Source: a virus
Lineage: Duplodnaviria > Caudoviricetes
IMG/VR virus record: IMGVR_UViG_3300032007_000001
Reading direction: 5' to 3' (one strand)
DNA length: 64,000 nucleotides
Shown piece by piece: positions 2,344-30,192 of this stretch (position 1 is the stretch's first letter; the number at the start of each line of letters is the position of its first letter). A model generated the notes under the pieces. It was not told the origin of the DNA, ran no database searches, and saw only the letters and a list, made by a program, of their open reading frames with translations. The translations under genes and the position numbers were made by a program.

Positions 2344-3528
2344 TTATAGTTCCTTGCTAAGAATATCTAATGGATAAATTATTTTTTTATCTTCTATAAA
2401 ATCACTTTGCATTTCTTTTAAGTTAATGATTTGGTCATCGGGGATTTGCCAGTTGCCAGTCATTTTTTTATTTGTCGTATCCCACCAAGACACAAAGTAC
2501 ATTGGCTTATCTACATTAATATCGTTTTCAATATATTTCTTAAAGTCATTTTCTGTTCTTTCTTTTAATTTATCATCCATAATACTGCAACGAATACTTC
2601 CTTGCCAATCGTTGTTTATATTCGTTGTATCAAATCTTTTTACTATCTCCATGGCTTTTTCATTGAAAGTAGCATTAAATGGGCCGGCGCCATGTTTCGT
2701 CAAATATGTTCTTGTACAATACACAGGAATAGTCTTTTCTTTTTCAAGACCATTTCTTAAAATAATATTGATTGGATTAGTAGAGTCAGTTTTTGAAGGT
2801 GTAGTATGTGGATAGGATTCTTCGTTATCTTCATCAAGCAATAATCCCTGTGCATTTTCAAAAATAAAATTATCATAATCCTTAAATAAAGATTTTTCTT
2901 CTTTTATAAGATACACTTTAGGATTATTCAACGATTTATCCAATTCTTCATAAAAGTCATCCATAGCCAAAGCCAAATTTATATCTTTGAATTGTTCAGG
3001 TATTCTTCTATTTATTTCTATCATTGCTTGTTCAAACCCATAAAAGTGTTGAATCAAACTTTTCGTAAATTCTCTTCTTTGCGAAAATGACATTTTTTGC
3101 AGTGTTCCAATACTCATAGGAAGTCTTTGACTTCTTATTTTTGTCGCAAAAATGCCCATGCCGCAAGACCCATGTCTATCTTTTGAACGTATCGTTTCAA
3201 TAAGATGATTCATAAGAATGTCTATTGGTGTAGTGATTCTACATTTTTCATTAATAAAAACGTCTGGAGAATAAGTCTTTGATTTTTTTTCGTATTCATC
3301 ATTAAAAGAGAAAGGATTGAAAATGAATGTATTTGCTAAATACGTAGGAATTGGAGCAGAACACAACGAATGATGTATAAATCCATAACTCGTATGTCCA
3401 GCTTGACAACCGCCATTGTGTTTAATTCCAAGGACGTAGTGGGCTGCAAGATTGTCTTTTATATATCTAACTGCGCGCCCTTTTCCTTCATCACCGTAGT
3501 TACTTCCAATCACTATGTAATTGCTCAT
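2344..3528 (-). CDS. Adenylosuccinate synthetase-like protein (divergent PurA family)
   Basis: GSNYGDEGKG P-loop, GGCQAGHT, FENAQGLLLD, YPHTTPS, YLTKHGAGPF. Confidence 0.85.
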   Translation of the reverse strand: MSNYIVIGSNYGDEGKGRAVRYIKDNLAAHYVLGIKHNGGCQAGHTSYGFIHHSLCSAPIPTYLANTFIFNPFSFNDEYEKKSKTYSPDVFINEKCRITTPIDILMNHLIETIRSKDRHGSCGMGIFATKIRSQRLPMSIGTLQKMSFSQRREFTKSLIQHFYGFEQAMIEINRRIPEQFKDINLALAMDDFYEELDKSLNNPKVYLIKEEKSLFKDYDNFIFENAQGLLLDEDNEESYPHTTPSKTDSTNPINIILRNGLEKEKTIPVYCTRTYLTKHGAGPFNATFNEKAMEIVKRFDTTNINNDWQGSIRCSIMDDKLKERTENDFKKYIENDINVDKPMYFVSWWDTTNKKMTGNWQIPDDQIINLKEMQSDFIEDKKIIYPLDILSKEL

Positions 3529-3546
3529 TTTCAATCCTTCTTCCAA

Positions 3547-9237: not shown

Positions 9238-9294
9238 AGTGCTATGTTGTATAAAAAAAGAATAACTTAAGGCCACTAAAAATTAGTGGCTCTT

Positions 9295-9478
9295 GTTTAT
9301 AATCAATACGTAAACGAACGATATTTTATTATCGATATAAATTTAATTTGAAAAATGAAGCTAGAGGGGGAAATACCTTATGGCAGTTGATTTGAGACGC
9401 CTCGACGCCAATGGCCTTAATTATTATTTTAAGGAAGTTGGTTTATTATATGACCAAAAATATGTTTCCAAAGATGAA
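9295..9478 (+). repeat. Imperfect direct repeat, copy 1 (upstream region plus first 33 codons)
   Basis: Aligns by eye with 20235..20411; identical peptide MAVDLRRLDANGLNYYFKEVGLLYDQKYVSKDE. Confidence 0.9.
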
Positions 9479-10333
9479 GTACGAGTAACCAATGTTACGT
9501 TAGAAGGTAATTCTTTAGTTATATATTTTAATGACGGAACAAGGAAAAAACTTGACGAATATGATGAAGAATTTGAGAACCTAAGAACATACTTAAATGA
9601 TAAATTCAGTGAAGTTGAAAATTCTGTTAATAATATAAATTTAACTGTGACAGGCAAATGTGCTAGTGATGAAATAACATTAAGCCCAAATAATAATGTA
9701 AATATTGATATTAGTTCTGTTGATGCAGATACAATCAATGTAACATCTGTAACTGATAATAATAGATATTTAGCACTCGTTGATGGCGTTGGCAATCAGG
9801 AAGTACATAATATCGAAGATTTTTATGTTAATTGTGATAATAAAAAATTATACGTTACAAATATCGAATGTTCTGGAGATATTAAAGGTAATCGTGTATT
9901 TAATGCAGTCTGGAATGACTATGCTGAATTAATGCCTCGAGGAGAAGAAACTGAACCTGGCGATATAATCATGTTAGACCTTAAAACCAAAGATGAACGT
10001 TATATTAAAGCTACAGATAAATTAGGTACAGTAGTAGCTGGTGTTCATTCGGATGAATTTGGTATGCTAATAGGCGGAGAAAAGCCAGTTGATAGTAAAG
10101 ACCTATTAGAGTATAATATAGACAAATATATTCCAATAGCTCTATCCGGCAGAGTTCACGTTAAATTTATCGGTAAAGCTAAGAAAGGAGCTAAAGTAGT
10201 TCCTTCTTCTGAACCTGGATATGGACGTTTATATAATAAAGGAGTAGATGACCCAGATACTATTATTGGGTATTTGGTTGAAGATGATGACAAAACAGAC
10301 AAGAGAAAACTTAAAATTAGAATCACGAGGTAA
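9380..10333 (+). CDS. Tail fibre/spike protein with C-terminal peptidase-G2-like intramolecular chaperone domain
   Basis: RVFNAVWNDYAE, GVHSD.FG..IGG, PIALSGRVHVK. Confidence 0.7.
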   Translation: MAVDLRRLDANGLNYYFKEVGLLYDQKYVSKDEVRVTNVTLEGNSLVIYFNDGTRKKLDEYDEEFENLRTYLNDKFSEVENSVNNINLTVTGKCASDEITLSPNNNVNIDISSVDADTINVTSVTDNNRYLALVDGVGNQEVHNIEDFYVNCDNKKLYVTNIECSGDIKGNRVFNAVWNDYAELMPRGEETEPGDIIMLDLKTKDERYIKATDKLGTVVAGVHSDEFGMLIGGEKPVDSKDLLEYNIDKYIPIALSGRVHVKFIGKAKKGAKVVPSSEPGYGRLYNKGVDDPDTIIGYLVEDDDKTDKRKLKIRITR

Positions 10334-11309
10334 ATTAGACTTAATTATTAAGCCTACACAAGCTTGCAATTTTGCTTGTGAATTTTGTTCTTCTAATGAT
10401 ATTAGTAATAGTAATAATAAAATATTACCATTAGATTTTCTCTGTGATTATATATTAAAAAATAATATTAATAGAATAATAGTAAACGGAGGAGACCCAT
10501 TGATGGTATCTCCCGTTTATTATTTGAAATTGTTGTCTTTCGTAGATGCTAATAAATTGGATGTCCATATATCATTTACTACTAATCTTTGGGATTTTTA
10601 TATTAATCCAAGCAAATGGGTAAATATATTTAAGAATTCTAAAGTTGGTATATGTACAAGTTTTCAATATGGAAATGAAAGAAAACTGAGAGATGGAACT
10701 ATTTTTTCGGAAAAATTATTTGTAAAAGTATTCAATAAATTCAAAGAATTAATAGGATATAATCCAATGTTTATTGTTGTTATTAATAAAAACAATGAAC
10801 ATTTGGCATTAAAACATGTGGAATTAGCCAAAAAATTAAATACAAAATGCAAAATGAATCCAGCATTGGCATCTGGACGAACAACAGAACCTTATCCTTT
10901 ATATAAAATGTACAATATATATGTGGATATTATTAAGCATGGATTATCTGATTATGAATTTAATTCTAAAGAAATAGTAAAATTATATAATAATCAACCC
11001 GCATGTTGTCCATATAGCAGAAATTGTTATAAAGGGATAAGATGCATTGACCCGGACTTAAATATATATACATGCGGAGCTTTTAACGATAATCATAACA
11101 ATAAAGATTATGCTATTCATAGTGGAAATTTTATTGCAAAAGATTATCCTTTTATAAAAAACGAGTGCTTAGCTTGTGAGTTATTCAAATTTTGCAATTC
11201 ATGCTATAAAAATATAGCCGATATTAAAAATTTTAATTTAATAGATGAGCACTGTATTGGTATGAAAAAGATAGGCAAAGAATTATGCAAAGTATGTACA
11301 TTAAATTAA
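10248..11309 (+). CDS. Radical SAM/SPASM protein (start uncertain)
   Basis: CNFACEFC, GGDPL, C-terminal CLACELFKFCNSC. Confidence 0.9.
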   Translation: MTQILLLGIWLKMMTKQTRENLKLESRGKLDLIIKPTQACNFACEFCSSNDISNSNNKILPLDFLCDYILKNNINRIIVNGGDPLMVSPVYYLKLLSFVDANKLDVHISFTTNLWDFYINPSKWVNIFKNSKVGICTSFQYGNERKLRDGTIFSEKLFVKVFNKFKELIGYNPMFIVVINKNNEHLALKHVELAKKLNTKCKMNPALASGRTTEPYPLYKMYNIYVDIIKHGLSDYEFNSKEIVKLYNNQPACCPYSRNCYKGIRCIDPDLNIYTCGAFNDNHNNKDYAIHSGNFIAKDYPFIKNECLACELFKFCNSCYKNIADIKNFNLIDEHCIGMKKIGKELCKVCTLN

Positions 11310-12142
11310 CTGAATCATGCAACTTAAAATGTCCGTTTTGTTATGTTGTTCAGAATAATAATAAAATGACATTAAAAACCGCATTAGAATCAATAGATAA
11401 GTATAATCCTGAAGAAATAATATTTCATGGTGGCGAACCAACATTAGAGAAAAAATTAATATTAAATATCTTAAAAAATAGACCAAATTATAAATATTCA
11501 ATAACAACAAATCTAATGACAAATATTGATAAGGAATTGGAATATATATTAAAAAAATGTTCAGTTGCAACAAGTTATTCATATGATAGATTTATCAATA
11601 AGAATCAATTTGATAAATTTAAGAGTAATTTTAATAAGGTTATTAAAATAAATGATATTACTTTGTTAATAACATTAACACCAAAACAACTGATAAGACC
11701 AACCAAAGAATTATGTAATATTATTAAAGAATTAAATCCTACTAATGTTACATTAGAACGAGTAAGGTTAGATTATATAACTGACATAAATGAATATAAA
11801 AATTTATATAAACTTACTGACGAATATTTGTATGAAATATTTTCTAGAGGTCTAATACCAATAGAAAAGAACAATCTATACAAAATGATAGTTAAATCAA
11901 TTAAAACCAATACACCAGTTTTTAGTAATTGTAATGTAATAACTGTTAACCCAGATGGGTCTGTTATTAATTGTCCAAATGGACCATTAGAAAAGAAAAG
12001 ATTAAAGGAATGTATTACTTGTAATATATATCAATATTGCAAAAATGATTGCCAGAGTTTTTCATCATTGGCATGTAGTTTTCCTATTAAAACTGTAAGC
12101 TTTGTAAAGGAGGCGCTGTATAATGGCAGTAACGAAAGATAA
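11285..12142 (+). CDS. Radical SAM/SPASM protein
   Basis: CNLKCPFC, FHGGEP, NPDG...C, CITCNIYQYCKNDC. Confidence 0.9.
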   Translation: MQSMYIKLTESCNLKCPFCYVVQNNNKMTLKTALESIDKYNPEEIIFHGGEPTLEKKLILNILKNRPNYKYSITTNLMTNIDKELEYILKKCSVATSYSYDRFINKNQFDKFKSNFNKVIKINDITLLITLTPKQLIRPTKELCNIIKELNPTNVTLERVRLDYITDINEYKNLYKLTDEYLYEIFSRGLIPIEKNNLYKMIVKSIKTNTPVFSNCNVITVNPDGSVINCPNGPLEKKRLKECITCNIYQYCKNDCQSFSSLACSFPIKTVSFVKEALYNGSNER

Positions 12143-12704
12143 TGTTATATCGTTATCAGAACTTTGTAATTACATAAATACCAATGTAGTAGATTATATA
12201 CAATCTCAAATACAATACTATAAAGAAAATCCTCCTCCGAATTTTAGTGGTAATGAAGATTATCTTCATTCTGGAACAACATTAGAAACCTTAACTCCAG
12301 ATATTATTACTAATTCAAATGATAAAATTAGTTTTAACGTATTGTATGAAAAATTGCAGCAATTATTTAAGAATTGGGCATTAGTAAGAATAATTGCTCA
12401 TACATATTATGTTGGTAATAATACAAATGGTGGAACAATAACTTATACTAGTAATGAATATTCCGGATATGCTTATTTAACAACAGACCCAAAAGATAAT
12501 TCTCTTACATTAACCAATTTGTTAAATACTAAAATAACCACAGACCATCTATCAAATATAGTATCAAAAATTAAAAATAGATGGTTTACAGTAGCGTCTG
12601 CTGACCAACAAAATACAGATACAACCAATTGTCATACGAATTGCCACAGCAGTTGTCACAGCAGCTGTCACAGTAGTTGTCATGGGAGTAGTGGTGGCTG
12701 GTGA
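12123..12704 (+). CDS. Protein with C-terminal (CHxx)5 repeat; candidate modification substrate
   Basis: Ends NCHTNCHSSCHSSCHSSCHGSSGGW; GGAGG RBS; lies between rSAM genes. Confidence 0.75.
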   Translation: MAVTKDNVISLSELCNYINTNVVDYIQSQIQYYKENPPPNFSGNEDYLHSGTTLETLTPDIITNSNDKISFNVLYEKLQQLFKNWALVRIIAHTYYVGNNTNGGTITYTSNEYSGYAYLTTDPKDNSLTLTNLLNTKITTDHLSNIVSKIKNRWFTVASADQQNTDTTNCHTNCHSSCHSSCHSSCHGSSGGW

Positions 12705-13441
12705 TTAATATGAATGAGAATATTATTAAGACACAGATACCTTTTGATGATGAACTGCTTGACAAATGCTTAAATGATGACGATGGTTCTTTATATGTCA
12801 TTGAATTTGATAAAAGCCAATATAAAGATGTTCGTTTTTTGAACTATATATATAATTTGGAATTAAAAAATTTTATAGTAAATTTTCAAAACCTAAGTAC
12901 AGAATTGTCAGATATTTTGATTGAATATATAACTATCAACAAAATACTGAGCGTTGACATATTTAACAGAATATGGATAAATGTATTGGAAAAACATTTA
13001 TTTAATAAACATTATGATAATGAACAATATGATGCATTTTTAAGTGAATTTATCAATAAAAATCATAACATCATAGAAGAATTATCAATAATATTATGTT
13101 CTCTTAAGTCTTATTTGTTGCAATTTACTTTTAATAAAAATTTTGATATAACCAAATACTTAAATAATAGTGAAGAATTCAAACAAATAGGTATTAATTT
13201 AGTATCATTAAGAAATTCAATAACGTTTTGGAATTTATTTGAAGAACTTGATAATGCTAAAAACATAAATATCAAAAAATATAAGAATTTTTATAACAAT
13301 TCATTTGAAGGATATAATATAGATAAGTATTTTCTTAAAGAATTCAACCCATTGGGATTAATATTTACAATGTCAAATGATAATTATAAGCAACTTAATG
13401 ATTTTACAAAGGAATTAAAATGTACGTTTACATCAGATTAA
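12701..13441 (+). CDS. Hypothetical protein in the rSAM operon
   Basis: ORF overlapping both neighbours. Confidence 0.7.
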   Translation: MINMNENIIKTQIPFDDELLDKCLNDDDGSLYVIEFDKSQYKDVRFLNYIYNLELKNFIVNFQNLSTELSDILIEYITINKILSVDIFNRIWINVLEKHLFNKHYDNEQYDAFLSEFINKNHNIIEELSIILCSLKSYLLQFTFNKNFDITKYLNNSEEFKQIGINLVSLRNSITFWNLFEELDNAKNINIKKYKNFYNNSFEGYNIDKYFLKEFNPLGLIFTMSNDNYKQLNDFTKELKCTFTSD

Positions 13442-14334
13442 CTGAAAAATGTAACTTAAATTGTGAACATTGTTTTAACAATATTAGAACTAATAAAATT
13501 ATAGATTTTGATAAATTAAAAGTTGTTCTTACCAACTTGAATAAAAGATTCAATAATAATATTTTTATAATTCATGGTGGAGAACCACTTTTGGTGAACA
13601 CAAAAGACATAATAAAATTAATCAACGATTTTCCAAATAATAAATGGCAAATTACAACGAATCTGATTTATGATTTAACAGATGATATGATAAGTTTGTT
13701 CAAACTCATAAATATATTAAGAATTTCGTTTGATATAAAAATCAGATTCAATAATTTTAGAAATTTACATACATGGGTTAAAAATATCAAAATATTGAAA
13801 CAAAATAATATTGACATTAACTTAAACTTGTGTTTAACGAAATATTTGATTAATCATAGTATTAGCAGTTTCATTAATTTTATAAATAGATTGGACACAA
13901 AAACATATAGATTAGAAATTCTTAGATATCATGGAAATGTTAATTGTAAAAGTCAATTTGTTATTAATAATAATCAAATAGACGATTGGATTTTTGATTT
14001 ATATAAATATGATAAAACTGATAATAGATGCATTAACATACAAGAAATAAAACATTGTATAAATAGTAAAAATAGTTTTTATAAAACCTGTTGTAATAAT
14101 ACATTAACTATTAATAGTGACTTAAGTATTGGTAATTGTCCAGCATATACGAGCAATAATTCAAAATTATTGTTGGATGAAATTTTACATAATCATAGAA
14201 AAATTCGTAATGAATGCTTAATATGTGATTATTACCAATATTGTCGTGGTTGGTGTAATAAAATGAATTGGACTAATAACATATGTCCTTTTCCAAAGAA
14301 ATTAGCTAATGAAATACTGGAGGGTATGAAATGA
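13420..14334 (+). CDS. Radical SAM/SPASM protein
   Basis: CNLNCEHC, HGGEPL, CLICDYYQYCRGWC. Confidence 0.9.
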   Translation: MYVYIRLTEKCNLNCEHCFNNIRTNKIIDFDKLKVVLTNLNKRFNNNIFIIHGGEPLLVNTKDIIKLINDFPNNKWQITTNLIYDLTDDMISLFKLINILRISFDIKIRFNNFRNLHTWVKNIKILKQNNIDINLNLCLTKYLINHSISSFINFINRLDTKTYRLEILRYHGNVNCKSQFVINNNQIDDWIFDLYKYDKTDNRCINIQEIKHCINSKNSFYKTCCNNTLTINSDLSIGNCPAYTSNNSKLLLDEILHNHRKIRNECLICDYYQYCRGWCNKMNWTNNICPFPKKLANEILEGMK

Positions 14335-15551
14335 TAATAAATATATTTGAGAAGCCATTCAGTAAAACGGAATTTAAGAAATTTGACGATAACGTTGATT
14401 TTACAAATGGCAAGATAAATAATTATAATGCTATAATCAACGATGATATGATACTTATAAATTCAGAATGGTATAATTCGGATGAAACTACAACAACGGC
14501 ATTGTATAATAAATCATCTGATATTAAAACCTCAAACAATTATATTGAAATTGATAATGTAATTTGTAAAAATATTCCTACTTTTGGTGTAACTCTTGAA
14601 GACAATTTTAATATATTGCAATTCAATTTAACTAGAGAAGAAGTTAATAATAGCAACGTAATGTCATCAATCATTAAACATAGAGGTTGTTTAATGTTTT
14701 GGGACACTAACAAAAAATATAATTATTCTAGTAAAGAAATTGATGAAAATAAATTAAAAGAATTAGTTGCTATATATAAGAAACAAGGATATATTGCACC
14801 ATTAGTTTTGTATGCAGATAAGGATTTTATTAGACCCTATTATCATGATTATATTATCTACTTGTATAAAGTACTTAATTTAGATATTCTACCAGTTCGT
14901 ATCATAACATATAAAGATATAAGATACATTAAAAATATTGATGAATTAATATATAATAAAATCAAATCGATACAAAGCAATAAATACTATGAAGCTGTTG
15001 ATAATGAAGACATGTCGCCTTACATGATATCAAATTACAGCAATAAAAGAGATATTATAAAAAAATATCTCAATGGTCAGTTTAACAACTTGCAATTCGA
15101 TGATTTGCATGAATTTTTGCCTTATGTTTTTAACGACGAAAAAGAAAACTTAAATAAAAATTTAATAACGAATGTAATGAATCATGATTTTTCTAAATAT
15201 TTCTACTTAAAAAATGGAAAACAATTTTATAGTATGTCATTGAGTGAGTCACTATTTAATTATCTTAATGGACATTTAGATACTAAAGAAATTAGTATTA
15301 CAGAAGACCAGATAATTAAAAAATTTCCAAAATTTGAAATAAAAAAAATAATTGACTTTGACCCATCTTTGCTTGCATTAGATTATTTTGATTATAATAT
15401 CAACAACGAAATAATTGGTGAGATTAGTAAACAATTTGGTAGAAATTGTTTATATGAAGAATCGCCAAATGCATTAATAGACTTTCATGTATTAAACGAT
15501 TTATTAAATGGTTCTGAAACCAAAATAAAAATTCTTAAAATAAAGAAATGA
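14331..15551 (+). CDS. Hypothetical protein in the rSAM operon
   Basis: 406-aa ORF, ATGA overlap; weak ParB/Srx-like segment GYIAPLVLY...LPVRI. Confidence 0.65.
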   Translation: MIINIFEKPFSKTEFKKFDDNVDFTNGKINNYNAIINDDMILINSEWYNSDETTTTALYNKSSDIKTSNNYIEIDNVICKNIPTFGVTLEDNFNILQFNLTREEVNNSNVMSSIIKHRGCLMFWDTNKKYNYSSKEIDENKLKELVAIYKKQGYIAPLVLYADKDFIRPYYHDYIIYLYKVLNLDILPVRIITYKDIRYIKNIDELIYNKIKSIQSNKYYEAVDNEDMSPYMISNYSNKRDIIKKYLNGQFNNLQFDDLHEFLPYVFNDEKENLNKNLITNVMNHDFSKYFYLKNGKQFYSMSLSESLFNYLNGHLDTKEISITEDQIIKKFPKFEIKKIIDFDPSLLALDYFDYNINNEIIGEISKQFGRNCLYEESPNALIDFHVLNDLLNGSETKIKILKIKK

Positions 15552-15556
15552 GTTAA

Positions 15557-16378
15557 ATGTTCATAAACACATTAAGCAAAATTATATTTATTAATAAGAG
15601 TTCCGAACCAAAAATTAAAATATGTAAATTTTTGAGTTATAGTTATTTAGAAGATTATAAAAAACTAAAAAAGTCATATCCAACAATTGAATTTTTATAT
15701 AAAGATTTATTAAAGCAAAGTAGAATTTATAATAAATTCAATAACTATCACATATTCATATTTGATAATGATGATTTTATCAATGCGTTAATTGATTACT
15801 GCGTATTATTACAATTGGATAAAACTGCATTGGATAAAATGATAGAATATTCAAATGTTTGCGAAATGTATGAAGAAAATCATCAATATTTCATTTCTGT
15901 ATATGATGAAGATTTTATATTAGATACCAGTAAAATTGTACTCAATAAATCAAAGATACATATTAAAGATTTATCAATGTTTCCAGCAGAATTTTTTGTT
16001 AATTGTATGGATAATAATATTGCTATACAAAAATACTCTAGAATGAGATTATTTGATTTATACATCACTATAAAAGACTTACAATATTTATTAATAAAAG
16101 AAAATAAAAGTATTCCAAAAGAACTTCAATGTTTTGGAAACAGTGACCAAACAACCTTATTATTGGAAAATAATGATATATTTAATAATGTTATAAAAAC
16201 ATTAAACGAATACAATGTTGATACAAATAAATTTACTTGTCCAATCAATAAGTACTTGGACTTAAATCCAAATTTTGGATACGATAGGTATTTCATGACA
16301 AAATATAATTATATGTTGGCTAAATACTTAAAATCTATTAATTATAGGATAACACAATATGTTGCGAAAAGATTATGA
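15557..16378 (+). CDS. Hypothetical protein in the rSAM operon
   Basis: 273-aa ORF. Confidence 0.65.
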   Translation: MFINTLSKIIFINKSSEPKIKICKFLSYSYLEDYKKLKKSYPTIEFLYKDLLKQSRIYNKFNNYHIFIFDNDDFINALIDYCVLLQLDKTALDKMIEYSNVCEMYEENHQYFISVYDEDFILDTSKIVLNKSKIHIKDLSMFPAEFFVNCMDNNIAIQKYSRMRLFDLYITIKDLQYLLIKENKSIPKELQCFGNSDQTTLLLENNDIFNNVIKTLNEYNVDTNKFTCPINKYLDLNPNFGYDRYFMTKYNYMLAKYLKSINYRITQYVAKRL

Positions 16379-17189
16379 ACATATAGAAAAAACATTTTTT
16401 TCTATTAAAAATGAACCAATAGGATATAGTTATCCAGATATGTATTCTGCTTATAAAAATTTTTCAAAAAATTTTAATATACCTATAGGCAATTTTATAT
16501 TAACAAATGGTTGCGAAAATGCCATTAGGATATTATTATCTTTATTCTCTAAAGAAATAACTACAGAAAAACCTCTTTTAATAGAAAAACCAGGGTGGGA
16601 ATTAGTATCTGTATTAGCATATGCTATGGATATACCTTATAAATTCTATTATTATGATAATGAATTTAAGACTAATTATGATAAAACTCATATAGTTTAT
16701 ACGACAGATACTTATAATAATGTAATCAAACATGAGTTTCCATCTGGTGAAGCAGATATTTATATAATAGATGAATCTTATACGATGAAACATTATTTTA
16801 ATGAAATACAAATACAAGATAATCACATAATCATTGGGTCATTTAGTAAGTTGGTTGACCCAGGTATAAGATTAGGATATATATTGTTTTCAGATAAATA
16901 TAGAGATAAAATGAATTTGTTAAGAGAGCAATATGTTAATAAAAATGCAGTAGATATATTAAAAAATTTATTTATAAAAAAGCCAGATTTTACAAAACCC
17001 AAAATTGAAAATAGCGAATTAATTGTGGCTTCACATTCTACTTATCTTACATTAAAAATTAATGATTTCCCGCTCAGTCATAAAAAATTTTCAATAAACA
17101 ATATTAATTACTGTAGAATAGGTAGACTTTCTGATAAATCTCAGGAGGTACTATTATTAAATGACATACTCAGAAACATTAAAGAATAG
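16359..17189 (+). CDS. PLP-dependent aminotransferase, class I/II (HisC-like)
   Basis: YPD, LTNGCENAI, IIDESY, GSFSK....GIRLGY. Confidence 0.85.
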   Translation: MLRKDYEHIEKTFFSIKNEPIGYSYPDMYSAYKNFSKNFNIPIGNFILTNGCENAIRILLSLFSKEITTEKPLLIEKPGWELVSVLAYAMDIPYKFYYYDNEFKTNYDKTHIVYTTDTYNNVIKHEFPSGEADIYIIDESYTMKHYFNEIQIQDNHIIIGSFSKLVDPGIRLGYILFSDKYRDKMNLLREQYVNKNAVDILKNLFIKKPDFTKPKIENSELIVASHSTYLTLKINDFPLSHKKFSINNINYCRIGRLSDKSQEVLLLNDILRNIKE

Positions 17190-17958
17190 ATATAAAATTA
17201 ATAATAATGATAATGAAATAGATTGCTTAAAAACTATATGTATTAATGTAACAGACTATTGCAACTTAAAATGTTCTTATTGCCCGCACGGGCATTCTTT
17301 TAATAGTAAAGAACATATTATGAATCTAAATACATTGGACAAATTAATAGAAAGACTTAATGAACTTAACTATAAAAATAGATTAACTATATCTGGATTT
17401 GGAGAACCAATGCTTCATCCATATATAGATATAATTATAAATAAACTGAAAAAATTTAATGTAGAAATATTAACAAATGGGTTAGTGGTTCCTAAGAATA
17501 AAACATCAATATTGAAAAACGCTAACAAAATAATTGTTAGCGTTCATAACATAAATGATTTAGATAAAATAAAAGAATTTTGGCCAAATGCAATAATAAG
17601 AAATCATGATATTGCTGATAAAAATTGCGAATTAATAGTAACGAATAGAGCTGGGTACTTAAACGATAAATATATAGATAATATATGTTCTTGCCCTTTT
17701 TACAAAATGTTTATAGATTATGACGGTTCGTATTTATTGTGTGCTGATGATTTCAAAAGAAAATCATTTCATAATCAAGTAAACATATTTAATCTATCAA
17801 TTAAAGATTATTTCATCAATTGCTTAAAAACAACCAAAATTAATATGCTTAATAGTAGAAAACTAATCGAGCCTTGTAATAAATGCAATATTAATGGAAC
17901 TGTATACGGATTAGATATAATTGAAAAATTCAAAAAAGAGGTATTAAAAATTGGATAA
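17161..17958 (+). CDS. Radical SAM protein with SPASM/twitch domain
   Basis: CNLKCSYC, GFGEPMLH, CSCPF...IDYDG..LLC, CNKC. Confidence 0.9.
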   Translation: MTYSETLKNRYKINNNDNEIDCLKTICINVTDYCNLKCSYCPHGHSFNSKEHIMNLNTLDKLIERLNELNYKNRLTISGFGEPMLHPYIDIIINKLKKFNVEILTNGLVVPKNKTSILKNANKIIVSVHNINDLDKIKEFWPNAIIRNHDIADKNCELIVTNRAGYLNDKYIDNICSCPFYKMFIDYDGSYLLCADDFKRKSFHNQVNIFNLSIKDYFINCLKTTKINMLNSRKLIEPCNKCNINGTVYGLDIIEKFKKEVLKIG

Positions 17959-18364
17959 TAGAAAAATAGGCAAATTTAAGGATATGTTTTATTTAATAGA
18001 TGAAAAAATTAGAAAGAATGTATTTAAGTTAAATCAAGCTGGATTTGTTACTTTTACAAGCAGTCAGGGAAATAATATAGAATTACCAAAAATTGGGATA
18101 GTATGTAAATCGTTATATGAAGCAAATGAAATAATAAAATTAATTGATACAAATAAAACAAATATATGGTATGAATTGTCAAATAGATGGTATAAAGAAA
18201 ATCCAATGTGTTGTAACGAAATAAATTATGATAATCAAACTAATTGTGATAATATATGTAAACCGTTCGATTTAGATTGGGACAGATGCTATTTTTTATT
18301 ATTTAAGGCTAAAACATTGAAAGAATTAGATGATTTGACCGATTTTCTAATTAAGAAGGAATAA
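17951..18364 (+). CDS. Hypothetical protein with TYW3-like N-terminal motif
   Basis: IDEKIRKNVFKLNQAGFVTFTSSQG. Confidence 0.5.
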   Translation: MDNRKIGKFKDMFYLIDEKIRKNVFKLNQAGFVTFTSSQGNNIELPKIGIVCKSLYEANEIIKLIDTNKTNIWYELSNRWYKENPMCCNEINYDNQTNCDNICKPFDLDWDRCYFLLFKAKTLKELDDLTDFLIKKE

Positions 18365-18366
18365 TA

Positions 18367-19269
18367 ATGAAATCAGATTGTTTATATGGTCATAAAATAA
18401 CTGTTGGATATAATTGCAAAGGTCAAGATTTTTTTGATATATTATCTTTTTATAAGAAATATATAGAAGAATTCTATTTTTCTTTTAGGCATACTATGCC
18501 CAAAACACCATTAGATTTAAGTATTATTTATAATCAATTAAAAGATTCAGAACAATATGATATTCCTTCTAATTTGTTATTAAATACAGAACAAGAAGAA
18601 TTGGAATGGGAATATCTTATTAATAAAGCTTATGAATGTACAAAATTGCAAGCTGTGTCTGTATTAAATATAAAAACTGCTAAAATTATAAAAGAAAAAT
18701 TTCCAAATATAAAAATTCACATATCTACTCATGGTGCGCAATATATTGATATTAAAGAATTAGATAAAAACTTAATTTATTGTGTTAATGTGAATGAACC
18801 GGCAATTTATACAGAACAACAACAAAATGTTATTAAAAAATGTAAAAAAATTGGAATTAAACTTAAGCATATAACTAATAGAGGCTGTATTTTTAATAAA
18901 CACGATTTTATGTCTCGTTTAACTGGGAAAAATATAATGTGTTGCAATGGATATCAATGCAAAAAAATATTGAAAGATTATCCATGGGTAGATTTAATTA
19001 GAACGAATTTATATAAAGAACAATTAAAATATCTTAATTTTGATTTTATTAAACTTTCTACTAGGGAAAGAACAAATGAAGAAATTAGTATGATGCTTAA
19101 ATATTGGACAAATCCAAAAATATCTACTGCTCATTTGTCGAATATTTATATATCAGAAAATAAATATCCAATTTTCTTAGAATGGTGTAAACAAAGATTT
19201 ATTTGTAATGGAAATTGCATAACTTGTAATATATGTAAAGAATACTATAAAAAATTAAAAGAAAATTAA
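18367..19269 (+). CDS. U32-family (UbiU/TrhP-like Fe-S) protein
   Basis: IHISTHG, ITNRGC, FIKLSTRE, C-terminal CNGNCITCNIC. Confidence 0.7.
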   Translation: MKSDCLYGHKITVGYNCKGQDFFDILSFYKKYIEEFYFSFRHTMPKTPLDLSIIYNQLKDSEQYDIPSNLLLNTEQEELEWEYLINKAYECTKLQAVSVLNIKTAKIIKEKFPNIKIHISTHGAQYIDIKELDKNLIYCVNVNEPAIYTEQQQNVIKKCKKIGIKLKHITNRGCIFNKHDFMSRLTGKNIMCCNGYQCKKILKDYPWVDLIRTNLYKEQLKYLNFDFIKLSTRERTNEEISMMLKYWTNPKISTAHLSNIYISENKYPIFLEWCKQRFICNGNCITCNICKEYYKKLKEN

Positions 19270-19301
19270 ATCATAAATATTGTTATACGTTAAGAGGGAT
19301 T

Positions 19302-20207
19302 ATGATGTATAATTATATAAATGAAATTGATAATGATTCTATAGTAGATAGAATAATAAAAATATCAAATAATACTAATGTTCATTTGTATGATACACCA
19401 GTCACTGTTAAAATAGAGTTGACTGGTGTTTGTACTTTGGGATGCGTTTTTTGTTTTAATCAAATTATGAAGAAAAACAAAATAAGACAAAAAATGATGT
19501 CAGATAAAGAATTTGATATATGCCTTAAATATATTGGTAAAATACCAACAATAAAAGAAGTTGGATTATTTTATATGGGCGAATCGACTTTACATCCAAA
19601 ATTAGTAGAATACTATAAGAAAGTAAAAGAATTGGGATATTTTACATTTTTAACTACTAACGGAACGTATATAAAAGAATTAATAAAAGCTATCCCATAT
19701 ATAGACAGCTTAAAAGTATCTTTCAATTATATAAATGATAAAGATTTTTCAATAAAAACCGGTTTACCCAATAAGGTTTATTTTGATATAGTTGATAATA
19801 TATCAATATTAAAAAATGAATGTCATAAACAAGGCAAAAAACTATATGGTTCAACTGTGCTTGATTATAATGAACAAGACTATTTGAGTAATGAAGTTAT
19901 AAAAACTTTTGATGAACACTATTTCATTCCGTTGCAAAATCAAGGTGGACTTATAAATAAAGGAAAAGGCGGAGTTGTTGGAGAAAGTAAACATCAAGTA
20001 AAAACCATTCCATGTTGGTCTTTATTTAAGGGATTATATATAGATGTAGACTTAAATGTCAGAACATGTTGTTATGGACATACAAAAGAACATATATTAT
20101 TTAATTTAAGAGATTGTAATCGCGATTTGGAAAAATTATATAAAATCAGAAATCAACAATTATCGAAAAAAATACCAAATATTTGCAACAAATGCTTAAA
20201 AATATAA
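19302..20207 (+). CDS. Radical SAM protein with SPASM/twitch domain
   Basis: CTLGCVFC, YMGES, TTNG, PCWSLF...TCC, CNKC. Confidence 0.9.
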   Translation: MMYNYINEIDNDSIVDRIIKISNNTNVHLYDTPVTVKIELTGVCTLGCVFCFNQIMKKNKIRQKMMSDKEFDICLKYIGKIPTIKEVGLFYMGESTLHPKLVEYYKKVKELGYFTFLTTNGTYIKELIKAIPYIDSLKVSFNYINDKDFSIKTGLPNKVYFDIVDNISILKNECHKQGKKLYGSTVLDYNEQDYLSNEVIKTFDEHYFIPLQNQGGLINKGKGGVVGESKHQVKTIPCWSLFKGLYIDVDLNVRTCCYGHTKEHILFNLRDCNRDLEKLYKIRNQQLSKKIPNICNKCLKI

Positions 20208-20234
20208 GCCATGTCACCAAAATTAATAGTATTA

Positions 20235-20411
20235 GTTTATAATCAAAATGTAAATAAATGATATTTTATTATTGATATAAATTTGATTTAAAAAGCTGTA
20301 GGAGGAAACCTCATGGCAGTCGATTTAAGGCGTCTAGATGCCAATGGTCTTAATTATTATTTTAAAGAAGTTGGCTTATTATATGACCAAAAATATGTCT
20401 CTAAAGATGAA
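20235..20411 (+). repeat. Imperfect direct repeat, copy 2
   Basis: See 9295..9478. Confidence 0.9.
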
Positions 20412-20939
20412 AAAAGAGTAATCAATATTTATTTAAGTGGTAATACATTAATTATTCAATTTAGTGATGGTTCTACACAAGAAGTAGATGTAAAATATAG
20501 TGAAGCATCTAATGATGAATACGGACTTGTAAAATTATATTCCAGCGAAGGTAACAATACAGACGGCGCAATGTCGCAAAAAGCTATTACAGATTTGATA
20601 ACACAAAAAACATCTTCTGCTAGATATGGTGTTTGTTCAACAGCTGCTGAAACGGCAGCAAAAACAGTTGAATCGGCAGGACAATTTATTTTAGAAGCCG
20701 GTTCTAGAGTAACCATTAAATTTACAAATGTCAATACTGCAAATGCGCCAACATTAAATGTAAATAATACTGGTGCAAAATATATTTATGCTAATGGGCA
20801 TCAACTTACAGCAAATAGCAATTTGATAGTTGCTGGTGGCATATATGATTTTGTATATGATGGAACAAATTGGGAAATGCCAAATATTACAAATGTTCCA
20901 AAAGAATCTGGAATTATAGATTTCTATACAACTCCATAA
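20313..20939 (+). CDS. Tail fibre-like protein (same N-terminus as 9380)
   Basis: YGLVKLYSSEGNNTDGAMSQKA, YGVCSTAAETAAKTV, PTLNVNNTGAK, FVYDGTNW fibre motifs. Confidence 0.8.
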   Translation: MAVDLRRLDANGLNYYFKEVGLLYDQKYVSKDEKRVINIYLSGNTLIIQFSDGSTQEVDVKYSEASNDEYGLVKLYSSEGNNTDGAMSQKAITDLITQKTSSARYGVCSTAAETAAKTVESAGQFILEAGSRVTIKFTNVNTANAPTLNVNNTGAKYIYANGHQLTANSNLIVAGGIYDFVYDGTNWEMPNITNVPKESGIIDFYTTP

Positions 20940-21646: not shown

Positions 21647-21804
21647 TTCATTATTAAAACCTCCCAAATTAAAAGAGAACTTAATTGTTCTCTTTTAATT
21701 TAGTGTGTTATCAATTTTATTTATATATTGAAACATAATAACGAAACAACAAATCAATATTATGTTTTTAGATGTTGATGTTCTATTTTATGGAAGGTGA
21801 AAAA

Positions 21805-23013
21805 ATGGAAATAATCAAAAGAGATTTTTGGATTGATGAAGATGAATTATCCGAAAGAGACGAAACAGATATGATTGTCATTCATCATACTGGTGGTGCA
21901 GATATTGACCCATCAGCAGAAGATATAAACGGCTGGCATGTAAATCAAGGTTGGGTCTGCATAGGATATCATTATGTAATATGTAAAGATGGGTCGATAG
22001 AAGAAGGAAGACCGGAATGGGCTGTCGGTAGTCACGCTTACGGAGAGAACAGTCATACTATTGGTATTCATCTTGGCGGAGATTTTAGCGAAGCTATGCC
22101 AACAGATGAGCAAATTGAGTCTTGTGCAGAACTGATTGCTCATTTATGCAAAAAATATGATATAGAAATTAATAGAGATAATATTGTTGGACATAGGGAT
22201 TTAATGTCAACTGATTGTCCTGGTGATAATTTATATGATTTAATTCCAACAATCATTCAAAAAGCAAATTGGTATAGTGGAGAAGATATTAAAGAAACAA
22301 ATGATGTTGCTGAAGCTATTGAAAAATCTCAAATCAACGTTGATGATATTGCCATTCTTACAAGAAAATACGAATCTTCAGGTAATCCAGCAACCGTTTC
22401 AACTGGTTACGGTGACCTTGGCGGTATTAGTTATGGAACATATCAATTTGCAAGCAATCTTGGGATAGTGGATAAGTTTGTAAATTGGCTTTGCAATTAT
22501 CCGGATGATGATTTTGCAAATTATGGTAGAGTATTAAAAGAACATAACGTTAATAGTGAAGAATTCATTAGTCAATGGAAAGAGCTTGGAGAAGTAGACC
22601 CTGGAAATTTTGGAATGTTGCAGGATGAATACGTTAAAAGCGTATATTTTGACAATGCAATAAATAGACTAAGAAATAATGGCTTAAATATTGAAAAACA
22701 TTCCAAGGCTTTAATGAACGTTGTAATGAGTCGCGCAATTCAAAATGGCGTTGGCGGATGTAATGAATTGTTTGCTATTGTATGCAATCAAATGGGACAC
22801 CCAAATCTTTCTTATATAGATGATGCTTATTTTGATAGAGAAATAATTGAAAAAATTTATGATTTCTTAATTGAAGAATGCGACAACGCGCAAGAAGACG
22901 ATAATGGAATTTATCGTTCGCCAAACGGGTTCTGCAATGGTTCACAAGGTGTAATTAATGGATTAAAGAATAGATTCATTAATGAAAAACAAGATGCAAT
23001 TGATTTATTGTAA
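21805..23013 (+). CDS. Endolysin: amidase_2 (T7 lysozyme-like) plus lysozyme-like second domain
   Basis: IVIHHT, IGYHYVI, GSHAYGEN, VGHRD..TDCPG; then KYES...GDLGGISYGTYQFAS. Confidence 0.85.
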   Translation: MEIIKRDFWIDEDELSERDETDMIVIHHTGGADIDPSAEDINGWHVNQGWVCIGYHYVICKDGSIEEGRPEWAVGSHAYGENSHTIGIHLGGDFSEAMPTDEQIESCAELIAHLCKKYDIEINRDNIVGHRDLMSTDCPGDNLYDLIPTIIQKANWYSGEDIKETNDVAEAIEKSQINVDDIAILTRKYESSGNPATVSTGYGDLGGISYGTYQFASNLGIVDKFVNWLCNYPDDDFANYGRVLKEHNVNSEEFISQWKELGEVDPGNFGMLQDEYVKSVYFDNAINRLRNNGLNIEKHSKALMNVVMSRAIQNGVGGCNELFAIVCNQMGHPNLSYIDDAYFDREIIEKIYDFLIEECDNAQEDDNGIYRSPNGFCNGSQGVINGLKNRFINEKQDAIDLL

Positions 23014-23595: not shown

Positions 23596-24582
23596 TCATT
23601 TGAGTCCCTTTTTTGATTTTTCGTACATATATAAATCTGGTCTAAATGGTCGATTGAATATTGGATATTCTTCATATAATTGATTACATATCTTACATTC
23701 ATCACAATGAAATTTATCACAATATAAAAGAGAATCTGGAATTACAGATGTATTTACGTCATAAATATTTTTATTTGCTGGGTCTATAAATAATTCGCTT
23801 AATTTGCAATCTTTTCTAGACGCATATATGTCAATAGGATGAAATATGCTTGAAATGTATTTTCTTGAACGAGTATTTAATTTATAAATATCTACATATT
23901 CATCTAAAATATTTAGCCATCTTGGCAAAACATAACATCTTTTCAAAATTTCGTTATTGTTAAGACAATTTCTTTTTGAGTAATTACATCCGCACGTCGA
24001 ATAATTTGTACATGTTATTGAACATGTTTCGTTAATTAACAATCTTATTTTGAATCCATTTTCTTTAAGCACTTTAAGAAATGGGATATTTCTGGCTGCG
24101 TCTCTTGGTGGATTTATATAATTGAATCCTTCATCATACCATTGTTTATAATGATTTAAGTTATAGTACGGTAAATTACAACTTGTAACTATTTCCAATT
24201 CCGGATAACGTTTTTTTATTGTTTTTGCAATTGTAAAATTTGTGGTTGCCATTCCATACAAATTATATTTTTCTATAGCGTTTGAAATTTTTTCAATAAT
24301 TTCTTGTAGTTCATTGTTGGTATATTTTATATAATAATCAATATCGTTACATAAAATTGTTATTCTTAAATCAGAATTTTTCGATTCTTCTAAAAAATTA
24401 ATGCAGTTTGTCTTATAATTTTCATGTTTTTGGTCATTACAGATTGTCATGAATGTATCTATTCCTGGACATTCTGTAAAAATATCGTGAATTAAGTTTT
24501 TTCTTTTTTCAGCTTCGTATAAAAAATCATTTATTTTATTTGTACCATTAAATCCTATAGCAAATTGTTTCATTGACTTCAT
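23596..24582 (-). CDS. U32-family protein
   Basis: IVTSC, PPRDAARN, LLINETCSITC, IYKLNTR, CDKFHCDECKIC; paralogue of 33453. Confidence 0.75.
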   Translation of the reverse strand: MKSMKQFAIGFNGTNKINDFLYEAEKRKNLIHDIFTECPGIDTFMTICNDQKHENYKTNCINFLEESKNSDLRITILCNDIDYYIKYTNNELQEIIEKISNAIEKYNLYGMATTNFTIAKTIKKRYPELEIVTSCNLPYYNLNHYKQWYDEGFNYINPPRDAARNIPFLKVLKENGFKIRLLINETCSITCTNYSTCGCNYSKRNCLNNNEILKRCYVLPRWLNILDEYVDIYKLNTRSRKYISSIFHPIDIYASRKDCKLSELFIDPANKNIYDVNTSVIPDSLLYCDKFHCDECKICNQLYEEYPIFNRPFRPDLYMYEKSKKGLK

Positions 24583-25963: not shown

Positions 25964-27124
25964 TTAAGCCTTCTCTTTGTTCATTTGAAAACCGAGCAAT
26001 GTTATTAGAAATCCAATTACTGTAAATCTAAAATCAAATGTTAAAAAATATCCAATTGGACAAATTGTACATGAAAGTAGCGTTACATAAAATAATCTTT
26101 TTTCATTAAATTTATTAAAAATAATCATTAAACTTGGCAAAACAATACATGCTCTTATTGTATTGTAAGATAAAAATGCTTGAGTAATATTAAAAATATC
26201 AAATAAGAATACAAAACATGCAAATGATAATGCTATTACCATTATAATTCTCGAAATGTTATCACTAAACTTAAATTCATTTTTTGCAAAACTCGCTATA
26301 GAAATTAAATTACTATCCAATGTAGATACCAATGCACAAAGAATAGCTACCAACATAACATGTTGTAATACGCCAGTATAATTATGCATTCCTAAAAATC
26401 CAACATATCCAAACATTAATGGTATTAACATAAATAAAAATGATGCTAACCCAAATGTTTTTACCAAATTTTCAGGTTGTATACTCCATGCGCGTTGCCA
26501 CATTGTTGAATCACTATATGGAGACGAAAGCAATCCCATTCCAGCTGTTATCCCAAACGTCATCCAAATTTCCATTGTTGATAATCCTTTATGACCAACC
26601 CAAGAAATATTTGCTAACGTTTCTGAATTTGTAGATGCAATACAAATTACAGCGGCACAAATAAATAAAATAATATATTTATATGAATCTGTAATAATAC
26701 TTGCTTTTAATCCATTTCTCCATACTAATAAAAGTGCTATTAATGAAATAAAGATACAATTGAAATATTTGTTTGGAATTAAATATTCCAATGCCGTACT
26801 AATTCCAACAATTTGAACGCATACAGACATTAATAAAATTACACAACTTACAAACAAATGAATTTTTTGTTGTCTTTGTGATGCATTTTTGAATCCGTCT
26901 ATTAATGTATATCCTTCTTTTGATTCTCTTATTCGTTTAATAACCAAACTAAATAAAAACATTGTCAATGTATTTGGAATTAAGAACATTAAAAATCCAG
27001 CAATACCATTATTATATGCCTGTGCACTAGAAATTAAAAGCGCTGGCGCCCAAATCCAAGTTGCAGCTAGACTTGATGCATATTGAAATAAATTACCGTC
27101 ATACCATCTGTAATAATTATTCAT
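25964..27124 (-). CDS. Sodium:solute symporter-like membrane transporter
   Basis: About 12 hydrophobic segments; SLAATWIWAPALLISSAQAY..G, GLKASIITD, WQRAWS, STLDS. Confidence 0.75.
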   Translation of the reverse strand: MNNYYRWYDGNLFQYASSLAATWIWAPALLISSAQAYNNGIAGFLMFLIPNTLTMFLFSLVIKRIRESKEGYTLIDGFKNASQRQQKIHLFVSCVILLMSVCVQIVGISTALEYLIPNKYFNCIFISLIALLLVWRNGLKASIITDSYKYIILFICAAVICIASTNSETLANISWVGHKGLSTMEIWMTFGITAGMGLLSSPYSDSTMWQRAWSIQPENLVKTFGLASFLFMLIPLMFGYVGFLGMHNYTGVLQHVMLVAILCALVSTLDSNLISIASFAKNEFKFSDNISRIIMVIALSFACFVFLFDIFNITQAFLSYNTIRACIVLPSLMIIFNKFNEKRLFYVTLLSCTICPIGYFLTFDFRFTVIGFLITLLGFQMNKEKA

Positions 27125-28154: not shown

Positions 28155-28294
28155 TGCTGTTTTTCCTTTCTTTTTGAATTATAAAACATAATATCAAAAA
28201 ACATAAAAAATTAAAAATGATTCATTAAAATATTAAAATTTACAATAATTAAATTTCATTTCTATATTTATTCTTTTTTATTTTAAGTAATTTT

Positions 28295-28665
28295 TTAATT
28301 TTCTTTTCTCACAATAACAGATACTTGAATAATTCCTTTATATGCTATGGTCGTTTCTTCATTATTATCAATAATATTATTATCTTTTTCAAATTTGTTT
28401 TTATCTAATTTTGATGTATTTATAAATAATACAAATATACCAGAATCATATATATCATCGGTTACACTATCAGCAACTTCACAGAAATCTATAGCTCTAT
28501 CTTATCTGTTTCTAAATAAACACAATTATTATTTGCCATACTTTCCTAATTAGAATGTTTTCCTGGGATGATTCCTTCTGACATAATTGAATCAATATAT
28601 GCATTATATGTTGCATGATATAAAATTTTTGGTATTTCAACATTTGATTTTTTTAATCTTTTCAT
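28295..28665 (-). pseudogene. Disrupted ADP-ribosyltransferase/Tpt1(KptA)-like gene
   Basis: MKRLKKS...LYHATY...DSIMSEGIIPG; in-frame TAG at 28546-28548, then VYL, then a frameshift near 28500. Confidence 0.55.
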
Positions 28666-28736
28666 TTTTTCTCTCTATAAATCATTAAATCTTAAATAAA
28701 ATAAAAAAAGAATATATATATTTTATTATCAGGACG

Positions 28737-28937: not shown

Positions 28938-28940
28938 AAG

Positions 28941-29141: not shown

Positions 29142-29156
29142 AGAAAGGAAATATAG

Positions 29157-30182: not shown

Positions 30183-30192
30183 ATGGTGATAA

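Follow-up and report, generated by a model that had tools for sequence, protein, structure and literature searches.

A 64,000-nucleotide stretch of DNA from a virus of the Caudoviricetes (Duplodnaviria; IMG/VR record IMGVR_UViG_3300032007_000001), here called the window, carries an operon in which five radical S-adenosylmethionine (rSAM) enzymes are encoded together with a protein that ends in a Cys-His repeat. The operon extends over positions 9380-20207 of the plus strand as a single tight unit of 13 genes, most of whose junctions overlap by 4-29 nt, and the largest gap is 32 nt. Open reading frame (ORF) calls and Pfam matches have borne out the gene layout, the translations and the five coupled rSAM genes that an earlier note on this DNA had described. 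The presumed substrate of the enzymes is a 193-aa protein (12123-12704) with a body of about residues 1-170 and a tail encoded at 12632-12701. Two rSAM/SPASM genes precede it: rSAM1 (10248-11309), whose true start is probably an internal Met near 10284, and rSAM2 (11285-12142), a paralogue type of rSAM3 that lies directly 5' of the tailed gene and overlaps it by 20 nt. The gene for a 246-aa partner protein (12701-13441; phrog_20767) is coupled to the tailed gene via a GTGA overlap and is followed by a third rSAM/SPASM gene, rSAM3 (13420-14334).

The tailed protein terminates in N-CHTN-CHSS-CHSS-CHSS-CHGS-SGGW, that is, (CHxx)5-GSSGGW, and the translation agrees with the ending first reported. 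The three middle units of the tail are 86% identical in DNA, which is why a recent expansion from three to five units may have taken place. The synonymous codons of the repeat units had been put forward in the earlier note as a sign of selection on the protein. The variants are present as stated, but they are weak proof of selection when taken alone, the middle units being so similar in DNA; selection on the tail is better indicated by the invariance of Cys and His among more than 60 homologues at less than 40% identity. In the predicted structure, residues 1-170 form a compact alpha/beta domain (predicted local distance difference test, pLDDT, 87; predicted template modelling score 0.81) and the last 25 residues are of low confidence, as might be expected of an accessible core. 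Fold searches gave no usable match for the tailed protein (Foldseek against PDB, best E 0.48; wide VIA search, best Z 4.2; Atlas, TM at most 0.35) or for the 246-aa partner, which was modelled with a pLDDT of 86 (Foldseek, best E 0.23; VIA, best Z 5.0 over 58 residues), results that do not prove new folds. In BFVD, the fold matches of the tailed protein are uncharacterised phage proteins only, including gp170 of phage Atu_ph07, and NCBIfam has no meaningful match for either protein. The proposal that the tailed protein is itself a structural fibre or fibre tip therefore did not survive: its model is compact and alpha/beta, it has no fibre-like or solved relative, and the fibre-like gene of the operon is a separate one (9380-10333).

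An exhaustive HMMER search of 1.8 billion representatives identified 32 proteins related to the 193-aa protein, and for 18 of these E was 1e-10 or lower. An exhaustive search was needed because a word-indexed protein search yielded no relative of the tailed protein, and a single relative of the 246-aa partner besides itself. The relatives are mostly 170-200 aa long and 17-38% identical, and most end in (CHxx)3 followed by GSGG, an aromatic residue or Arg, and Arg. In the other subfamily, which is larger, (CHxS)3 precedes a terminal RGRR or RSRR; its members include Atu_ph07 gp170, RSL2 ORF068 and proteins of many IMG/VR contigs. The family as a whole thus consists of folded proteins of about 185 aa that end in (CHxx)3-5 and then GSGG[RWFY]R or RGRR. 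Only the tail is invariant: in three units Cys and His show little or no variation, and the terminus is constant, whereas the bodies share 17-38% identity. Among 50,697 phage records, megablast with the whole operon and tblastn with the tailed protein, the 246-aa partner and the pyridoxal phosphate (PLP) enzyme described below found nothing, and a profile scan of genome contigs with alignment A1 gave no match.

The family also contains unusual members. Two tandem genes for Cys-His-tailed proteins are present in L144 (6118-6935), L146 (6075-6892) and L152 (439-1627), where L denotes a numbered locus, and the proteins of L144 and L146 measure only 134-137 aa. The L149 locus encodes a 435-aa protein with a six-unit tail. 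Together, the short tandem copies and this long protein indicate that the tag is used on bodies of different size. A 121-aa metagenomic relative, P0030 (L123, 322-687, on a 908-bp contig), has an N-terminus with RRKFL resembling a twin-arginine translocation (Tat) signal, and its tail of five CHxS units terminates in GSRGWR; this protein may represent a bacterial version that is exported.

The tailed gene is linked to rSAM genes wherever the family has been found. In all 33 viral loci with a genuine Cys-His-tailed protein, counting those with at least 4.9 kb of sequence, two to six ORFs on the strand of the tailed gene encode an N-terminal CxxxCxxC motif and are no more than 6 kb away. None of the 111 control viral loci (984 kb), in which the same DNA pattern was matched through out-of-frame simple repeats, contains an rSAM-motif ORF. 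In 185,579 species genomes the DNA pattern of the RGRR tail occurs at 22 places, 17 of them in metagenome-assembled genomes (MAGs) of Bdellovibrionota. A Cys-His-tail gene was called at 21 of these 22 places, and each of the 21 is accompanied in its 8-kb locus by rSAM-motif ORFs, most often directly adjacent. The 33 viral and 21 bacterial loci therefore include no CHxx protein that lacks rSAM neighbours, and the earlier suggestion of a core fused to a protein-sized body, with its gene tied to rSAM/SPASM genes far beyond chance, has held. In the minimal loci L151, L169 and L171, a single rSAM gene adjoins the tailed gene. The enzyme encoded directly 5' of the tailed gene is of the rSAM3 type in Atu_ph07, RSL2 and most MAG loci, the bacterial neighbours as a group being of the rSAM3/rSAM2 type. 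The order rSAM1, rSAM2, tailed gene, 246-aa partner, rSAM3 recurs in L124-L127, and the core synteny extends to Atu_ph07 and RSL2.

The 246-aa partner follows the tailed gene in 12 viral and four MAG loci, and it may be a substrate-handling protein. The idea that it is a degenerate rSAM enzyme, raised by weak VIA rows to ChlB and anSME, was ruled out by hhalign (probability 0.1%). A predicted complex of the partner with the tailed protein scored ipSAE 0.55 against 0.04 for the best control, with the runs agreeing in at least 67% of contacts and a partner pLDDT of at least 73, a result rated as weak support; it is not counted as evidence, because complex scores of 0.60 or less held only seven of 80 solved complexes and both passing mismatches.

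All five enzymes pass the Pfam rSAM model PF04055, with 38.4, 39.0, 37.9, 46.2 and 46.7 bits for rSAM1 to rSAM5 against a cut-off of 29.5, and all five have the CxxxCxxC motif within the first 50 residues. The rSAM1 and rSAM2/3 families have seven to eight invariant C-terminal cysteines, the SPASM set, and align over the full length to the anaerobic sulfatase-maturating enzyme (anSME). rSAM4 passes the SPASM model PF13186 narrowly (21.7 against 21.5 bits), and rSAM5 has a partial C-terminal Cys set only. The most conserved enzyme of the family is rSAM1, which is 35-40% identical to proteins of jumbo phages of Agrobacterium, Ralstonia, Burkholderia, Pseudomonas and Sinorhizobium and matches copies in Bdellovibrionota MAGs at E 1e-76 to 1e-98. 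The best solved relative of the rSAM2/3 and rSAM1 family profiles is anSME (PDB 4K36-39), aligned over the whole length at E 1e-10 and 1e-9, respectively, followed by ChlB, CteB, SuiB and SkfB. These alignments begin at the first residues of the phage enzymes, but CteB and SuiB become alignable only from residues 101-136, which indicates that the phage enzymes have no RiPP recognition element (RRE) domain, where RiPP stands for ribosomally synthesised and post-translationally modified peptide. The NCBIfam matches are all far under the curated cut-offs, and the recurrent neighbours (DynA, TIGR04083, HxsC, anSME and PapB) are peptide or protein maturases. HxsC is a weak neighbour of six of nine rSAM1-family members, and PapB is the best neighbour of rSAM2 (E 3.5e-12). 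For the anSME model TIGR03942, rSAM1 of the window has no match at E 1e-5 and five of nine family members match weakly, the best at E 5e-10. By sequence, the core enzymes are thus nearest to anSME and belong to no curated family. The classification that the earlier note had asked for groups them with SPASM enzymes that modify peptides and proteins, and apart from nucleoside and cofactor enzymes.

Experimental data are available for a distant relative of the system. In Atu_ph07, polyethylene glycol (PEG)-purified particles were analysed by electrospray ionisation tandem mass spectrometry in 13 gel fragments, and the coding sequences 170-215 form one of three clusters rich in virion proteins (PMC6102473). 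Table S5 of that study lists gp170 (31.89 kDa) with eight unique peptides and 35.16% coverage in bands 1-9, most abundantly in band 1 (PMC6102473). The proteins that peak in bands 1-2 are of 87-137 kDa; for those near 30 kDa, such as gp55-gp64, the peak falls in bands 7-8 (PMC6102473). The 66-kDa protein gp176 is listed with 14 peptides; the rSAM enzymes gp165, gp168 and gp171, the partner gp169 and the cupin gp172 are absent from the table (PMC6102473). Locus tags and sizes in RefSeq agree with the gp numbers. The particle preparation thus contained gp170, the syntenic counterpart of the tailed protein, but not its enzymes, and after boiling in sodium dodecyl sulfate (SDS) gp170 migrated far above its mass. 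This is the gel behaviour expected of a covalently cross-linked or very stable oligomeric fibre component. With respect to the structural role claimed earlier, a distant counterpart was detected in purified virions, while the window protein itself is not fibre-like.

The first gene of the operon (9380-10333) encodes a 317-aa fibre-like protein. Its C-terminal domain (about residues 166-317) is strongly conserved in the genes immediately 5' of the cassette in L124, L126 and L127, and its last 60 or so residues are conserved in gp176 and in proteins of L153, L140 and L150. Its Atlas neighbours include the Peptidase_G2, T4 gp36 and T7 tail-fibre families at the level of a lead. The name fibre/spike given to it earlier is accordingly supported as a lead, by these neighbours and by the C-terminal homology to the Atu_ph07 virion protein gp176.

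Eight genes follow rSAM3. Proteins of 406 aa (14331-15551; conserved in L126 and L127) and 273 aa (15557-16378; conserved in L125-L127) have no assigned function. The next gene (16359-17189; conserved in L125 and L126) encodes a class I/II PLP aminotransferase-like, HisC-like protein, a label from the earlier note that stands on PF00155 (26.8 against 19.7 bits) and an SFSK lysine motif; at 276 aa it is short, so its activity is not assured. It is followed by rSAM4 (17161-17958; conserved in L125 and L126) and by a 137-aa protein of no assigned function (17951-18364; conserved in L125). The latter had been called TYW3-like, which could not be upheld: it has no match to PF02676 in Pfam or to any NCBIfam or PHROG model, and its Atlas neighbours are unnamed phage proteins. 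A Cys-rich 300-aa protein (18367-19269; homologues in L126 and L127) and rSAM5 (19302-20207; conserved in L125 and L127, E about 1e-100) complete the operon. This extended set, from the 406-aa protein to rSAM5 and including the fibre-like first gene, recurs in order in L125-L127.

The 300-aa protein had been assigned to the U32 family. The assignment holds indirectly, through a paralogue in the window (33453-34442; E 2e-9) that passes PF01136 with 27.3 against 22.4 bits over a 64-residue stretch; neither the 300-aa protein nor its homologues in L126 and L127 match Pfam themselves, and a PDB profile search was also blank. The protein is 49% identical to residues 161-448 of a 457-aa protein of L127. 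In L127 (15858-17231) and L126 (16873-18201) the homologue has about 150 additional residues at its N-terminus, a fused domain that forms a stand-alone gene of about 140 aa in RGRR cassettes (RSL2 ORF081, Atu_ph07 gp149; L002 12353-12772). This domain was not found in the window by tblastn (E >0.07).

The cassette is bracketed by a direct repeat. Upstream, a terminator-like hairpin (9271-9291) is followed by a 76-nt region (the two together spanning 9271-9354), which contains TATAAAT, recurs at 20219-20294 and is a putative promoter. The full repeat of about 260 bp (9279-9537 and 20219-20470, 81-82% identity) consists of this common upstream region and the first 64 codons of two paralogues, the 317-aa protein and a 208-aa protein (20313-20939), which are 73% identical over these residues. 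The second copy (20219-20939) bounds the cassette, and a second terminator-like hairpin is present at 21666-21701. The cassette therefore sits between two fibre-like paralogues and 5' of a lysin-like gene. The lysin-like protein, encoded at 21772-23013 just 3' of the cassette, combines an Amidase_2 domain with a C-terminal domain like that of VgrG3 of the type VI secretion system. Recombination between the paralogous fibre-like genes could lead to gain or loss of the cassette, and the operon is probably transcribed together with the fibre-like gene from the repeated upstream region. The upstream motif is not enriched in the window (six matches against 3.0 expected), and a sigma-70 scan carries no information in such AT-rich DNA.

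The linkage, the gene order, the invariant tail, the model with an accessible tail, the enzyme class, the virion data from Atu_ph07 and the precedent of the His-Xaa-Ser (HXS) system point in one direction. We consider it somewhat probable that rSAM enzymes modify or cross-link the Cys-His tail of a virion protein associated with the fibre, and maturation of the fused core by rSAM chemistry is well supported as such. The tail would serve as a C-terminal tag for the leader-independent, RRE-less and anSME-like enzymes rSAM1, rSAM2 and rSAM3, which would abstract hydrogen atoms at Cys, His or Ser and so bring about covalent changes. Candidate products are thioether or other cross-links, His-centred cross-links and oxidised (carbonyl) residues; alternatively, Cys or Ser could be oxidised to a carbonyl and then transaminated by the PLP enzyme. 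The 246-aa partner would help to present the substrate. Additional tailoring may be carried out by rSAM4, rSAM5, the aminotransferase-like enzyme, the distantly U32-like protein, possibly of an Fe-S type, and the three uncharacterised proteins, and the finished protein would be built into the virion, probably alongside the fibre-like protein encoded just upstream. A more specific and tentative proposal is that the rSAM enzymes make a cross-linked or cofactor-like tail by which the tailed protein is covalently stapled onto, or into, the virion's fibre apparatus. Such stapling would explain why the 32-kDa counterpart in Atu_ph07 peaks above 100 kDa after SDS boiling.

Several points weigh against modification of the tail in a virion protein. 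The chemistry has been observed for no family member, and seven of the 13 operon genes have no assignable function or are weakly assigned only. Cys-His repeats are good metal ligands, and the tail might work unmodified. The motif of anSME substrates, C/S-x-P/A-x-R, is absent, the RGRR subfamily having C-H-G-S-R and the window protein C-H-G-S-S. In addition, gp170 resembles the window protein only distantly (aligned at 27% identity, with E 2e-6 in phmmer and E 2e-5 for the fold match), and an oligomer resistant to SDS, or aggregation, could account for its peak in the top band without a covalent link. The particles came from a PEG-purified stock, and Table S5 also lists ribonucleotide reductase, single-stranded DNA-binding protein and terminase with 1-4 peptides (PMC6102473). 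For these reasons the presence of gp170 in the Atu_ph07 virion is likely but not proven, and the tailed protein of the window phage would be placed in the virion by analogy.

The tail could also be a site for a metal or a metallocluster. The rSAM enzymes, the PLP enzyme and the Fe-S-type protein would then build or insert a metallocofactor, or the tail would simply chelate Zn, Fe, Ni or Cu in an oligomer without covalent change. Sets of several rSAM enzymes are typical of cofactor assembly, as with NifB and HydE/HydG, and the fibre tip of T4 gp37 binds iron through His-x-His motifs; the alternation of classical ligands at fixed spacing, with invariant Cys and His, would suit such a site. rSAM4 and rSAM5 have as their best NCBIfam models a tungsten-cofactor maturase and MoaA, though far under the cut-off. 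This explanation seems unlikely, as the core enzymes align over their full length to anSME and peptide maturases and not to NifB, HydG or MoaA, the minimal loci with one rSAM gene suit direct modification better, and no metal-transport or scaffold gene was recognised.

Action of the enzymes on another substrate is rated lower again. The tailed protein would then be a scaffold, an electron carrier or a regulator, and the substrate could be the fibre-like protein, another virion protein, a small molecule or a nucleic acid. In favour of such a pathway, seven genes are unassigned, and thymidine hypermodification provides examples of phage-encoded rSAM and PLP enzymes (PMC8989533). However, phages that hypermodify thymidine contain no relatives of rSAM5 or the PLP protein, and no kinase, glycosylase or nucleotide-binding family was found among the operon genes in Pfam, NCBIfam and PHROG-type scans. 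A fibre-like gene with the conserved C-terminal domain precedes the cassette in both subfamilies, but it is the tailed gene, not the fibre gene, that is the constant rSAM neighbour in minimal loci and MAGs. Least probable in our estimation is a product that is not structural, that is, an intracellular or exported effector for counter-defence or host takeover, or a released modified peptide, like HxsA or a RiPP toxin. In the HXS system, a repeat protein matured by rSAM enzymes is an effector that acts on DNA entry; in addition, bacterial MAGs contain members of the Cys-His-tail family, and P0030 has its Tat-like N-terminus. The window protein, on the other hand, has no signal-like N-terminus, neither a protease nor an exporter gene was found among those of the operon, the gene is located between fibre-like genes and 5' of the endolysin gene, and gp170 was detected in virions.

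The cassette is carried by what appears to be a rumen or cattle-gut megaphage. The GC content of the window is 23-30%, apart from one 2-kb bin with 36.5%, and phage-type genes are present across it. Twelve tRNA genes in three groups and a transfer-messenger RNA (tmRNA) gene (tag DNDYVAIAA) lie at 37071-38255, 52450-52525, 57641-58005 and 60816-61179. The 246-aa protein is on record from a contig of 504,291 bp, and the sequencing runs that contain the full stretch are bovine gut metagenomes only, which may be the source sample. The AT-rich DNA, the tRNA and tmRNA genes, the 504-kb record and the bovine gut runs together indicate a megaphage from an anoxic gut habitat. A gene at 2344-3546 on the minus strand encodes an adenylosuccinate synthase homologue that matches a PHROG annotated as PurZ-type (E 6e-39); its product scores weakly against NCBIfam PurZ (20 against 300 bits) and is nearer to PurA models.

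The RGRR-type cassettes in phages of aerobes mostly contain one to five cupin or 2-oxoglutarate (2OG) oxygenase genes. The window and L125-L127, of the GSGG subfamily, have no cupin or 2OG oxygenase gene and contain instead two extra rSAM enzymes, the PLP protein and the Cys-rich 300-aa protein. In view of this gene content and the anoxic gut, the cassette of the window may represent an O2-independent version of the pathway. The more specific idea that the U32-like protein replaces the oxygenase has been weakened: only the fused N-terminal domain of the L126 and L127 proteins is common to RGRR cassettes, and the U32 call is weak.

A second rSAM cassette is present in the window at 27117-36675. 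It comprises an rSAM/SPASM gene (29157-30182), an rSAM-motif gene (35683-36675) and the U32-like gene at 33453-34442 mentioned above. Three paralogous proteins of about 345-400 aa have an SGGxxS PP-loop-like motif (27117-28154 on the minus strand, 32432-33463 and 34435-35634), and two proteins have extremely Cys-rich C-terminal tails that end in CSCS-type runs (31413-32033 and 32051-32398). From its gene content, this cassette looks like another protein-tail maturation system of the same phage. Outside both cassettes, on the minus strand, an eighth rSAM-motif gene (61435-62409) has a MoaA/viperin-like N-terminus far under the cut-offs, and a third, weakly U32-like paralogue is encoded at 23596-24582.

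Maturation by rSAM enzymes is known for small peptides (RiPPs), for sulfatases and, since 2026, for one bacterial defence effector. To our knowledge, it has not been described for any protein of a virus particle. Many giant phages of soil, water and gut, as well as predatory bacteria, devote 5-14 kb to the cassette, which must therefore matter for fitness. If the stapling proposal is true, it would define a new class of enzymatic virion maturation that is common to giant phages and Bdellovibrio-like predators, O2-independent in gut phages and assisted by oxygenases in phages of aerobes. Further characterisation could reveal a new Cys-His cross-link chemistry, a new principle in the assembly of the fibre or adsorption apparatus, and a set of compact rSAM enzymes that need no leader and act on a short tag at the C-terminus. 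As culturable carriers exist, including Atu_ph07, RSL2/RSF1, the Burkholderia phages FLC6 and S13 and the Pseudomonas phage pPa_SNUABM_DT01, the question is directly testable.

Three known systems are the closest to that of the window. HXS is a bacterial antiphage system whose periplasmic effector HxsA acts on DNA entry; HxsA is a folded protein with His-x-Ser repeats that is matured by two rSAM enzymes and a small partner, with a gain of 8 Da in an SHRSS motif (Li et al., Nat Commun 2026, PMC13128918). Both systems have a protein-sized, folded substrate with short tandem repeats containing His, more than one rSAM enzyme and a small non-rSAM partner. Moreover, every Cys-His-x-Ser unit holds a His-x-Ser triplet, and HxsC is among the recurrent weak neighbours of the phage enzymes. 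In contrast, the repeat of the window protein has period 4, an invariant Cys and a position at the extreme C-terminus, whereas HxsA has His-Xaa-Ser units of period 3. The window protein has neither an export signal nor a peptidoglycan-binding domain, no HxsD match was found, and the enzymes score 20-32 bits against cut-offs of 268-370 for HxsB (TIGR03978) and HxsC (TIGR03977), outside the set of HXS models (TIGR03976-03979). The phage cassettes also lie beside fibre-like genes and not in a bacterial defence island, and contain three to eight rSAM enzymes instead of two.

The sulfatase-maturating enzymes anSME/AtsB (TIGR03942; PDB 4K36-4K39) are the best solved relatives over the full length. 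Like the phage enzymes, they are minimal rSAM/SPASM proteins without an RRE, and anSME acts on Cys or Ser of a whole protein, not on a leader-guided peptide. They differ in that identity is low, the phage enzymes stay below the cut-off of TIGR03942, no sulfatase was found and several paralogous enzymes are present per substrate. Ranthipeptides and sactipeptides (PapB/PapA of freyrasin, CteB/SCIFF, TIGR04115) have Cys-rich C-terminal cores of regular spacing that are processed by rSAM/SPASM enzymes, as presumed here. The window enzymes nevertheless fall far below the models for PapB (NF047865), StsB, SCIFF (TIGR03974) and TIGR04115, with scores such as 46 against 340 and 24 against 350 bits. 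The window has no RRE, short leader peptide, exporter or protease, and the substrate would be a folded protein of 193 aa and a likely virion component. No description of a Cys-His-tail/rSAM system was encountered in the searched literature, and the system of the window is best regarded as an undescribed variant of protein maturation by rSAM enzymes.

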